Below are positions 3,190 to 64,000 of a DNA stretch of 64,000 nt, piece after piece. The notes below the pieces were generated by a model. It worked only from the letters and a program-made list of their open reading frames with translations, was not told the origin of the DNA and made no database searches. The position numbers and the translations under genes are program-made. Positions within the stretch are counted from its first letter, which is position 1. Each line of letters starts with the position of its first letter. Origin of the DNA: Eledone cirrhosa (Eukaryota); NCBI GenBank assembly GCA_964016885.1, contig OZ024741.1:114948001-115012000 (forward strand), given 5' to 3'.

Positions 3190-6100
3190 GTAGATAAATC
3201 TACCAAGAGTTTACGGTAGTGTCCAATCCGTATGAAGAACTCAATGTATTCCGGATATCATGGAAAGAAGAGATGTAATGAAAAATCACTTTCGGTGAAA
3301 GATAAACGGTATACAGAGTCAAGATAAAATATTAAACAAATAATGAATAAAACAATGAAACAGTTCCTTATATTAAACAAAAAAAGTTCATTATTTAACG
3401 ATCGTTTCTAGGATATATATGTGTTAGAATTGGTATGCATATTCAACAGATCTATGTACAAAATTATACAAAATTATACAAACTATCAAGATTAAATATA
3501 CATACCAACACATATATACGCCGTCTTCAGAAATAATGAAATATATTTATTGATAATAACAACAATTCAAAATTTCAGGTCCGTTTGGGAACAAAATTGA
3601 CCAATGAAAATACAAAAGGTTTTATGCAGTTCGGTGTGTGTATATACATGTAACTACCCTTACACATATTTTACAAAAATGTATGCTCAACATGTATACG
3701 CATACCAAAAGGATGGATGCAAATACAACATTTCAAGGTTAATGTCTCTGTAAGTTTATAATGCACAGATAAGATGCGTATAGACACATAATATGAAATA
3801 AGTGTATACACATATTCTCATACTCACACATATCCGTACAATCACACACACGCGCGCGTATATGCATAAACATACACATAATTACGAACATACAAACACA
3901 CACACACCCCCACTCACATATATATATATGTGGATATCATAAGCACATGGATATTAATTCACTCACATAAACACTGCCACACACATTTAGATCAAGAAAC
4001 AGAAATTAGGTGGGAGGGGGGGGGAGAGGTCAGTATTCAACGGTTTGGGCAGACTGCTTATTATAGATGTATCTATAAACTAAGAAAATAAAAAATAAAA
4101 ATTAAAAAGGAAAGAAAAGAAAAAGAAAAAAGAAAAAAGAAATATATCAAGAAAATATATATATATATATATATATACATACATACATATATATATATAT
4201 ATATATATATATATATATATATATATAAACACATACATACATATACACACATCCACACTTAGAACATACATACACACACATATATAAACATATACATATA
4301 CACACATACACACATATACACACATACATATAAATATATATATATATATATATATATATATATATATATACACACATATATACACATATAATCACACATA
4401 CTATATAGACACACATATATATACACACATACACGCACATATACATACACATACATACTTATATACATACAGATATACACATACATACCTATATATACAC
4501 ACAAATACATACAGACATACATACATACATACACACAAATACTTACGCATCCATATATCGGTATATACATACAAACACCACTACACTCTCACACAACTCA
4601 GACATACAAAGAAAAAGGTATATACCTATACACATATACATATACAAATAGAGATACATATACATATATATATATATATATACACATATATATATATATA
4701 TATATATATATATACATACACATATACACACATATACATACATACACATACATACATGTACACACACATACATATACATACATACACACATACACACATA
4801 CATATATAGTCATACACACACATACACCTACACGAACATACACATACACATATATAAAGATATATATACACACACACATACACACACACACATATATATA
4901 AAATAAAGATATATATATATATATATATATATATATATATATATACATACATATACATACACACATACATAGACATATATGTACATACATACACATACAT
5001 ACATACATACACACACATATATACATATATATACACACATAGACACATACATACACACACAACATACATACACACACATATATACTCATACATAGAATTA
5101 GATATATATTCATACATACATACGCACTTACATATACTCATATATACAAATACATACGCATCCATATATGCGTATATACATACAAACACCACTACACCCT
5201 CACACAACTCAGACATACAAAGAAAAAGGCATATACATATACATATATACACACATTAATAGAGATATATATACACATATATATATATATATATATATAT
5301 ACACATACATTTATATATATAGACCCACACACACATACAACCATAAACACACATACAAACACATATACACATATATATACACATACATATATATACACAC
5401 ACACAAAAAACAGACATACACATATATATTTTTTTACACATATATATACACATATATATACATATACACACCCTCACATATACACACATACACATAAGTT
5501 ATATTATAATAATAAATAATATATATATATATATATATATATATATATATATACACATACGAATATAGACATATATACACACATAGATATACATATATAT
5601 ATACATATACACACACACACACACACACTCACATATATATGTGCGCACACGTACATATATACACATACACACATATACACGTAAACACATACATGTGCAT
5701 ACATGCACATACACACATATACCCACATAGATACGAAGATAGACATATAAATAGAGAGACATACATATATATACACACACATATATACATACATACATAC
5801 ACACATATATATATATATATATATATATATATATATATATATATATATATATATATATACATACACACATACACGCCCACACACATATACACATATACAT
5901 ATATATATACATACACACATACACATACACATATATATACACATGCATATATACACATATATATATATACATACACACATATATATACACACAATCTTAC
6001 ATTCTTATTTGCATGCGCATATATGTATTTTTATATTCAGATATAAATACCCAAACATATATACACCTACCTACATATATATTCATACATACACGCTTAC

Positions 6101-62552: not shown

Positions 62553-64000
62553 TAAACAAGGTTTAGTAAATAATGAAAAAGTTTCAAAATAAATTTTAAA
62601 AAATTGACTTTACCTACTATAGTAACCTTTACCGATCGGTTTCGAATCCCAAAAATAAAACGGAGACCATACGGCCTTCGTTGCAAAGAGAGATTCTCGT
62701 CAGAAGGTTCTTTTCATTCAAAGAATATAAAATTCCTGAATTTAAATCACAAACTAGCGCTATCAAAGACTGTTCCTGGGATGAGAGTGGATGATGTAGA
62801 CCAGATTTATCAAGGGCCGTAGTAAAGATAGAGGCAAAAGGAGGTAGGTCAAACTAGCCACCGCTGTTGTCAGCAGCAGTCGGAATGACCCGGTTTGTTC
62901 TCAACGTTTGTGGAGGTAGTAGTAATATGAAATACGTCCCTTCACGCACAAGGCGCCAAGGTACGCATGTATTGTCCAACCAAGTGCCAGTGTGGTTCAA
63001 TGGCGGGTTAATAAATTAACGAGCCAGAACAAATATAAACAAGGTTTAGTAAATAATGAAAAAGTTTCAAAATAAATTAAAAAAAATTGACTTTACCTAC
63101 TATAGTTACCTTTACCGATCGATTTCGAATCCCAAAAATAAAACGGAGACCATACGGCCTTCGTTGCAAAGAGAGATTCTCGTCAGAAGGTTCTTTTCAT
63201 TCAAAGAATATAAAATTCCTGAATTTAAATCACAAACTAGCGCTATCAAAGACTGTTCCTGGGATGAGAGTGGATGATGTAGAACAGGTTTATCAAGGGC
63301 CGTAGTAAAGATAGAGGCAAAAGGAGGTAGGTCAAACTAACCACCGCTGTTGTCAGCAGCAGTCGGAATGACCCGGTTTGTTCTCAACGTTTGTGGAGGT
63401 AGTAGTAATATGAAATACGTCCCTTCACGCACAAGGCGCCAAGGTACGCATGTATTGTCCAACCAAGTGCCAGTGTGGTTCAATGGCGGGTTAATAAATT
63501 AATATTTTTGGGATTCGAAACCGATCGGTAAAGGTAACTATAGTAGGTAAAGTCAATTTTTTAAAATTTATTTTGAAACTTTTTCATTATTTACTAAACT
63601 TTGTTTATATTTGTTCTGGCTCGTTAATTTATTAACCCGCCATTGAACCACACTGGCACTTGGTTGGACAATACATGCGTACCTTGGCGCCTTGTGCGTG
63701 AAGGGACGTATTCCATATTACTACTACCTCCACAAACGTTGAGAACAAACCGGGTCATTCCGACTGCTGCTGACAACAGCGGTGGCTAGTTTGACCTACC
63801 TCCTATGGCCTCTATCTTTACTATGGCCCTTGATAAATCTGTTCTACATCATCCACTCTCATCCCAGGAACAGTCTTTGATAGCGCTAGTTTGTGATTTA
63901 AATTCAGGAATTTTATATTCTTTGAATGAAAAGAACCTTCTGACGAGAATCTCTCTTTGCAACGAAGGCCGTATGGTCTCCGTTTTATTTTTGGGATTCG
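62553..64000. repeat. inverted tandem array of ~483 bp units with one HHR per unit (runs off the window)
   Basis: left arm 62553-63502 (HHR on - at 62624-62709, 63108-63191); right arm from ~63503 (HHR on + from 63935). Confidence 0.9.
62624..62709 (-). ncRNA. type I hammerhead ribozyme, canonical core
   Basis: rc: AACCTT-CTGACGA-GAATCTC..GGGATTC-GAAA-CCGATCGG-TA-AAGGTT. Confidence 0.9.

Follow-up and report, generated by a model that had tools for sequence, protein, structure and literature searches.

Introduction

Endonuclease-bearing Penelope-like elements (PLEs) are known to carry a 5′-truncated inverted copy of their pseudo-long terminal repeat (pLTR) joined head-to-head, together with a tail at one end, in microsatellite targets and with palindromes at some junctions (PMC3846280; PMC8557442). 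The head-to-head form is called the "most frequently observed" arrangement in PLEs (PMC3846280) and is drawn for several clades (PMC8557442, Fig. 2), and the origin of the inverted repeats and tails is presented as an open question (PMC8557442). Here we describe inserts of the same head-to-head anatomy, with a tail at one end, in a 64,000-nt stretch of the Eledone cirrhosa genome (assembly GCA_964016885.1, contig OZ024741.1, positions 114,948,001 to 115,012,000), hereafter the window, and in further loci of this 3.0-Gb genome. The window is densely filled with inserts in (TA)n runs, both PLEs and non-coding hammerhead arrays of the retrozyme type, and the two outer ends of a two-armed insert almost always lie at two different fixed sites, one at each.

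Three described systems provide the comparison. In vitro, the protein of the Anolis Poseidon PLE PAc, a predicted dimer, cuts and extends both strands of an AT-rich target without a difference between strands, and its reverse transcriptase (RT) starts at two neighboring internal sites, one on each side of the genomic tail (PMC11167929). The main text of that paper does not tie the two starts to the inverted structure, and it calls the steps after priming unvalidated. In the twin priming of L1, both nicks prime, the arms have the polarity seen here and microcomplementarity joins the cDNA ends, and from internal duplications it is evident that a cDNA can be extended beyond its partner's primer site (10.1101/2024.08.27.596794). 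Animal non-LTR retrozymes (those lacking long terminal repeats), like the arrays studied here with units of 467–571 nt, are non-coding tandem repeats with a type I hammerhead in each unit (PMC7229834; 10.64898/2026.07.22.740005).

Results

Paired end sites

We assigned the inserts to families H1, H2, H3 and H4 (coding), R571, R467, R483 and R53 (non-coding) and N (Neptune-like), all labels of this analysis. In every family the outer (3′) ends lie at two fixed sites, A and B, 62–134 nt apart, and both finish in 2–5 nt of TA or AT common to the flank. The A–B interval corresponds to the PLE tail, which was reportedly first described in older Penelope papers; it measures 62–134 nt in nine families and 66 nt in one Poseidon-like insert. 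Known PLE tails are shorter, at 30–40 bp, and the known inverted structure is described as "often" present or "optional" (PMC3846280; PMC8557442), whereas here it is near-obligate: among two-armed inserts with both ends at A or B and a TA flank, which we call scorable, 103 of 104 from eight families pair an A end with a B end, one has two A ends (L176) and none has two B ends. The counts are 22/22 for R571, 17/18 for R483, 12/12 for R467, 9/9 for H1, 17/17 for H2, 9/9 for H3, 11/11 for H4 and 6/6 for R53. For five families the query contained the tail, so that the count tests only whether the second arm ends at A; the three retrozyme families, for which no tail was required, give 51 of 52.

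Single-armed inserts provide the expectation. Their A and B ends stand at 7:7 in R571, 4:4 in R467 and 16:2 in R483, where the query favored A, and since the two ends are equally frequent, chance pairing would yield A with B in at most about half of the inserts (p ~5e-30 for 103/104 against 0.5). Nine open cases were predicted before retrieval; eight ends were as predicted, and L328 had A on the right. Of the junctions in stretches picked regardless of content, ten resolve as A with B and one (H3 in L383) misses A by 27 nt, the others being unscorable, and the rule also holds in family N (nine inserts) and in the one Poseidon-like insert. Site A is on the left in 44 and on the right in 59 cases (p 0.17), a near-even division that is expected if either strand accepts either site. 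Some H1 loci looked like B/B pairs because an arm continues there into another tandem copy; the ends of L311 and L312 are at A. Within the window seven of ten places follow the rule, with B left and A right at 3190–13415, 15916–20922, 27570–30803 and 53478–53838, and A left and B right at 16094–20056, 22728–23180 and 62550 to beyond 64000 (right end in L070); the exceptions include 43787–44525, whose right end is ragged. The pairing is real and strict, and as a rule it is apparently unreported: we found no statement of it, or of twin priming for PLEs, in the literature searched, which did not extend to the older Penelope papers, where a prior statement is possible.

Head-to-head polarity

The original prediction held that inserts have a minus left arm and a plus right arm, with 3′ ends outward, none of the opposite polarity having been noticed. 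This polarity was found at all ten window places, and all 139 direct strand switches in 239 stretches of eight families run from minus to plus. The stretches (38 for R571, 39 for R483, 21 each for R467 and H1, 30 for H2, 31 for H3, 29 for H4 and 30 for R53) include the window copies and omit L110, a duplicate of L114; the tally is a sample of the genome. On this sample head-to-head and tail-to-tail joins are far from equal in number, and no true direct tail-to-tail join occurs: plus-to-minus neighbors were seen at five places, each across (TA)n of at least 24 nt. In 440 kb chosen regardless of content (40 round-number stretches and four neighbors), there are 20 direct minus-to-plus junctions and one more with TA in the overlap, and three plus-to-minus cases across TA; among the 20, the H1/N junction in L070 is doubtful and the H3 junction in L070 is counted in the family tally too. 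The lone apparent direct plus-to-minus case there was a 70% match on a TA run. The rule is real, and it was already known for PLEs; as had been proposed, it covers non-coding hammerhead arrays and kilobase-long arms.

The sense strand was to be read from open reading frames (ORFs) or hammerheads, which is possible at nine of the ten places, where an ORF or a complete type I hammerhead is present. At 53590–53838 there is only half a hammerhead core (GAAAC-GCGC-GTC); the polarity of this insert stands, and its start does not, because the coordinates miss a 109-nt tail and the insert extends from 53478 to 53838. Nor are inserts generally two-armed: of 98 retrozyme loci 57 have two arms and 41 one, and in the window the array at 23323–27181 and the Poseidon-like element at 30825–36294 are one-armed. 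L037, L039 and L173 are single-armed retrozyme inserts whose 5′ end meets site B of a like-oriented copy from a different family.

Arms and junctions

Nearly all scored inserts lie in (TA)n, in which target-site duplications are hidden. Truncation at the 5′ side is unrelated between the two arms, whose lengths show no correlation (rho −0.07). In 44 inserts it is the A arm that extends further 5′, in 41 it is the B arm, and in 18 the reach is equal, so as a rule neither arm is copied from its partner. At 27570–30803 the 222-nt arm carries the tail and the 3-kb arm lacks it. The arms are more similar within than between loci at 77 of 87 loci. At shared polymorphic sites, discordance was 0/34 in R571 (11.0 expected), 3/43 in R483 (18.4), 0/6 in R467 (2.7), 0/28 in H1 (10.8) and 5/186 in H2 (66.2), or 8/297 against 109 expected for the five families pooled, showing that in five of seven families the arms derive from a shared source haplotype. 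In the window R483 insert a unit variant is in register between the arms at one site. Of the variants private to a locus, 110 are confined to one arm and 26 are present in both.

The joins resemble those expected when two cDNAs are end-joined. The four youngest families supply 61 junctions, of which 36 overlap by 1–6 nt and 10 are blunt, counts given without a chance control; a further 6 have 1–5 extra bases, 7 have longer inserts, some of the longer inserts being tandem copies of adjoining sequence, and 2 have longer palindromes. The window H1 join is counted as a 4-nt overlap, a 44-nt value being a reference artifact, and junction inserts above 5 nt are inflated in older families. In H2 the palindrome CATATG (30632–30637) is a frequent stop of both arms, with equal 5′ reach in 10 of 17 inserts, and 12 of 13 antisense-H2-to-sense joints listed from X1 contigs, another sample, lie at 30632–30643; either a fixed RNA 5′ end or fold-back would produce this pattern. 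Comparison of the H2 sense strand with three raw-read runs gave one opposite-strand joint, whose polarity was unreadable. In L361 (2580–2850) the palindrome arms extend through (TA)n into a mirrored N-like neighbor, which could represent a genuine fold-back or else a composite element.

Retrozyme arrays

R571, R467 and R483 are non-coding tandem families with a full type I hammerhead in each unit and two or more such units in succession, as in retrozymes; R53, with only half a core, is not classed as a non-LTR retrozyme. The window holds 18 hammerhead matches against 0.03 in the shuffled window, using a descriptor without a paired stem II closing, as a stricter form missed the R571, R467 and H2 references; an Rfam search of the window at gathering thresholds gave no match. 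The arrays contain no protein-coding frame; the frames over them are short and lack an RT motif. Self-cleaving transcripts and circular RNA would be further retrozyme traits. A term search of PMC7229834 and 10.64898/2026.07.22.740005 found no two-armed inverted arrays whose ends are fixed at A and B. The end rule that the arrays share links them to insertion of the PLE type, as opposed to growth by unequal crossover alone. Unit variants recur with period 6 in L298 and period 2 in L305 (both R467), with L056 (R571) noted alongside; such periodicity is consistent with rolling-circle copying of a circular multimeric RNA or with duplication of the DNA afterwards.

Hydra-type features of the coding families

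H1 to H4 encode an RT and, C-terminally, a GIY-YIG endonuclease with the motifs of the Hydra clade and, like its members, have an RW[K/R] motif, DKT, a CxCx5C linker, no CCHH, CxxC-E-N-CxH and (TA)n targets (PMC8557442, section 11). The RWK-type N-terminal motif is RWR in H1 and H4, with W in 69 and the following K or R in 66 of 75 aligned proteins. DKG is replaced by DKT in H1 and H4, DK being invariant and T present in 66/75. The GIY-YIG frames of all four families have the CxCx5C linker (C673 and C681 invariant); the core lacks Cys in 63/75, with two unconserved in H1, and around E and N, CxxC is present in 74/75 and CxH in 73/75. A canonical hammerhead is present in H2 and was not found in the tested copies of H1, H3 and H4. 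In the length of H1 (over 6.2 kb, against less than 3 kb as a typical but not strict value for Hydra, and about 3 kb for H2), and perhaps in the hammerhead, these families differ from the described clade, in which we provisionally place them by motifs. An octopus Hydra family targeting (TA)n is listed in the supplement of PMC8557442. The labels Neptune-like (37385–38561) and Poseidon-like (30825–36294) are likewise provisional, based on motifs as PMC8557442 describes them. Pfam gave no family for any of ten PLE frames tested.

Both H1 (7900–8250) and H2 (28980–29270) proteins contain long Asn-rich low-complexity inserts upstream of the endonuclease, and comparable inserts are described in Adineta Penelopes (PMC3846280). 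The 3′ region of H1 includes a 1.8-kb microsatellite-like tract (4155–6000 and 10790–12590) that travels with the element in 20 other loci. The H4 frame is interrupted by a lone TGA at 40624–40626, and its upstream pLTR (38562–39318) lacks 535 nt (42119–42653) of the 3′ copy (41656–42947); the ends of the missing stretch share a short TCTTT and have no GT-AG.

Contents of the window

The elements under study are collected in Table 1.

Table 1. PLE and retrozyme features of the window
Feature	Position	Strand	Remarks
H3 further copy	1–2036		
H1 insert	3190–13415		RT and C-terminal GIY-YIG, Hydra-clade motifs
H1 left arm, Hydra-type PLE	3190–9385	−	5′-truncated ORF, 4-kb 3′ region, site B at 3190
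H1 tail	3190–3323	−	134 nt, site A to site B
H1 RT and GIY-YIG frame	7233–9385	−	DKT, YRDD, CxCx5C, CxxC-E-N-CxH
H1 right arm	9382–13415	+	Site A; overlaps left arm by 4 nt (9382–9385)
R467 retrozyme left arm	15916–20766	−	Site B at 15916; interrupted by R571 insert within its internal TA tract
R571 retrozyme left arm	16094–16999	−	Site A
R571 right arm	17000–20056	+	~5.3 units; type I hammerhead cores 17487, 18059, 18634, 19205, 19776; site B
R467 right arm	20764–20922	+	Site A; overlap 3 nt
H3 left arm	22728–22792	−	Site A
H3 right arm	22791–23180	+	87-nt tail, site B
R467 array, 8 units	23323–27181	+	Single-armed, site B
H2 short left arm	27570–27791	−	Hammerhead, 86–89-nt tail, site B; long arm without tail
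H2 long right arm	27792–30803	+	5′-truncated ORF to 29703, hammerhead core 30703, site A
Poseidon-like PLE	30825–36294	−	DKG motif, direct pLTR, one arm
Neptune-like PLE 3′ fragment (N)	37385–38561	−	Own site A; joined to arm of another family
H4 PLE	38562–42947	+	Upstream pLTR, ORF 39466–41655 (one in-frame stop), site A
H3 ORF fragment, two-armed	43046–43712	− to 43603, + from 43601	Outer ends within ORF, neither A nor B
Older R467-type two-armed insert	43787–44525		Left end B, right end ragged
R53 two-armed insert	53478–53838		B on left arm with 109-nt tail, A on right arm; only half a hammerhead core
R483 retrozyme	62550–64000+	− 62550–63502, + from 63503	Minus arm A; B of plus arm ~200 nt past window

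An extra two-armed insert, absent from the original prediction, lies at 20968–21435, its right arm extending about 125 nt past the end of the left arm; no hammerhead was found in it, its sense is provisional, and a one-armed copy lies at 36409–37057. A long interspersed element (LINE) at 57117–61331 has endonuclease and RT frames (Pfam PF14529, PF03372 and PF00078) and a weak Myb/SANT match upstream; this element and a LINE 3′ fragment at 55595–56116 are both single-armed and flanked by (TA)n. Two elements at 49958–50926 and 53847–54815 are presumably Helitron-like, from their TC start and hairpin-CTAG end, and two hairpins resembling 3′ ends stand back to back at 49958–50021. The frame at 47568–48167 has what we take to be Tc1/mariner-like transposase motifs and no Pfam match.

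Discussion

The strict pairing of sites A and B raises the question of how the two ends of one target come to receive different starts. We consider it likely that head-to-head PLE and retrozyme inserts are made by coupled twin priming, in which a single RT–endonuclease complex uses both sites, the coupling being inferred from genome anatomy. The endonuclease would cut both target strands, and one complex would extend both 3′ ends of the cut, one from A and the other from B. Two RT active sites, probably those of a dimer, would hold the RNA asymmetrically so that each target end receives one start site; each cDNA would stop on its own, and the two cDNA 3′ ends would anneal or be end-joined and then filled in. 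A single-armed insert would be an event in which the second cDNA is nil or a few bases long, and arms of 4–20 nt of the opposite type are present at L043, L174 and L192. The template may be one RNA, either with the leading cDNA displaced by the RT that trails it or with two units of one multimer copied, or two sister RNAs of one source. This seems the simplest reading that unites the anole in vitro data with the genome data. A broader proposal, that an asymmetric RT dimer using two programmed starts on one transcript at both break ends is the normal route of endonuclease-bearing PLEs (Hydra, Neptune and Poseidon) and retrozymes, we would favor by a small margin over its negation. The original prediction already had both ends of a break in self-complementary (TA)n priming reverse transcription and the cDNAs joining at their truncated 5′ sides. 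Priming at both ends gains support from the TA-sharing fixed ends and the unrelated 5′ truncations, and the joining from the short microhomology at young junctions. Self-complementarity of (TA)n is probably dispensable, because Adineta inserts with inverted pLTR and tail have ordinary target duplications of 8–10 bp (PMC3846280).

Independence of the two priming events, the remaining part of that prediction, is not supported. Two independent ribonucleoproteins at the two break ends would fit the polarity, the unrelated arm lengths, the junction microhomology and the out-of-register unit variants described below, and perhaps explain the two-family join at 37385–42947, but they predict about 50% A/A or B/B inserts, where 1 of 104 was seen. 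They also predict mixed haplotypes, which the low discordance in five families contradicts, and mixed families, whereas 19 of 20 direct junctions in the unselected stretches lie within one family. The A and B count thus refutes independent priming as the main route, making it a very improbable explanation of the inserts at large, and it may hold for rare events. The absence of B/B inserts would equally follow if both cDNAs started at B, or one long intermediate were made, and the endonuclease later trimmed the tail from one end during resolution. We regard such trimming as unlikely, since in vitro the RT starts at either boundary of the tail, A ends share the same 2–5-nt TA overlap as B ends, and single-armed inserts end at A as frequently as at B.

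Self-priming, in which the copied strand folds at a palindrome and copies itself (the model of PMC3846280, with an antisense template), accounts for head-to-head polarity and identical arms, is in keeping with the frequent stop of both H2 arms at CATATG, and may apply to some of the 18 inserts with equal reach. A fold-back copy must nest in its template, yet in 44 of 103 inserts, 27570–30803 among them, the tail-less A arm extends further 5′ than the tailed B arm (for non-tandem families, 17 of 52); the excess of private variants confined to one arm also speaks against it, a pattern that later mutation yields as well. Fold-back is therefore refuted as a general route, and we give it little credence overall, a shade more than independent priming. 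Inverted repeats do cause assembly trouble, and the L361 palindrome continues through TA into its neighbor; artifacts or later DNA-level palindromes would nevertheless neither end at family-specific A and B sites nor vary in 5′ reach nor be free of tail-to-tail joins, and the joints in X1 contigs recur in another sample, making an artifactual origin of the arms scarcely credible.

Several observations weigh against coupled twin priming or limit its evidence. Besides the sole A/A insert at L176, the insert at 37385–42947 unites two PLE families, Neptune-like on the left and Hydra-like on the right, with a blunt join, two A ends and no inverted match between the arms; a deletion that brought two inserts together, or an infrequent independent event, may explain it. 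The outer ends of 43046–43712 lie inside the ORF and are unmatched in any other locus examined, and H3 in L383 ends 27 nt short of A. Of the 139 junctions, 35 were unscorable (cut off, running into a further copy, at neither site or without a TA flank), of which 6 were resolved later, all as predicted, and the loci are the best 40 of 173–3942 candidates per search, so that young copies are over-represented. The haplotype signal is absent in H3 (8/24 discordant, 8.5 expected) and H4 (16/71, 19.0), and where present it could also reflect the activity of a single source at any one time, or conversion of one arm by the other afterwards. In L054, L184, L185 and L305 the two arms carry their unit variants out of register, which argues against both having been primed within a single repeat unit of one RNA. 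RNA folding of the A–B regions gave no structure common to A and B, a homodimer prediction for H1 residues 1–480 gave no verdict and is evidence neither way, and what is known of coupling in these families comes from genome anatomy, the pairing of two starts on one target molecule not being addressed in the main text of PMC11167929.

In comparison with the known PLE structure, the arms here reach 4–8 kb, either arm may be the longer, and non-coding arrays follow the same rule (PMC3846280; PMC8557442). The PAc starts are not homologous to the target (PMC11167929), whereas A and B share 2–5 nt with (TA)n. The inserts work like L1-type twin priming but are not L1-type: L1 uses poly(A) and a chance internal site, giving mostly non-overlapping arms whose lengths correlate (R 0.76, 10.1101/2024.08.27.596794), whereas here two fixed, close sites give nearly complete overlap and uncorrelated lengths. 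The polarity rule by itself would be ordinary; the pairing of A and B is apparently the new part. It sharpens what was loosely described to a strict prediction, one that an existing in vitro system can test and that discriminates among three models, and through the anatomy of insertion it connects arrays of hammerhead retrozymes with the machinery by which PLEs insert. If coupled twin priming holds across clades, the inverted pLTR and the tail would be one signature of one mechanism, distinct from the target-primed reverse transcription of LINEs, and because telomerase and the PLE RTs are sister groups (PMC8557442), dimeric two-ended priming would bear on the evolution of RTs.

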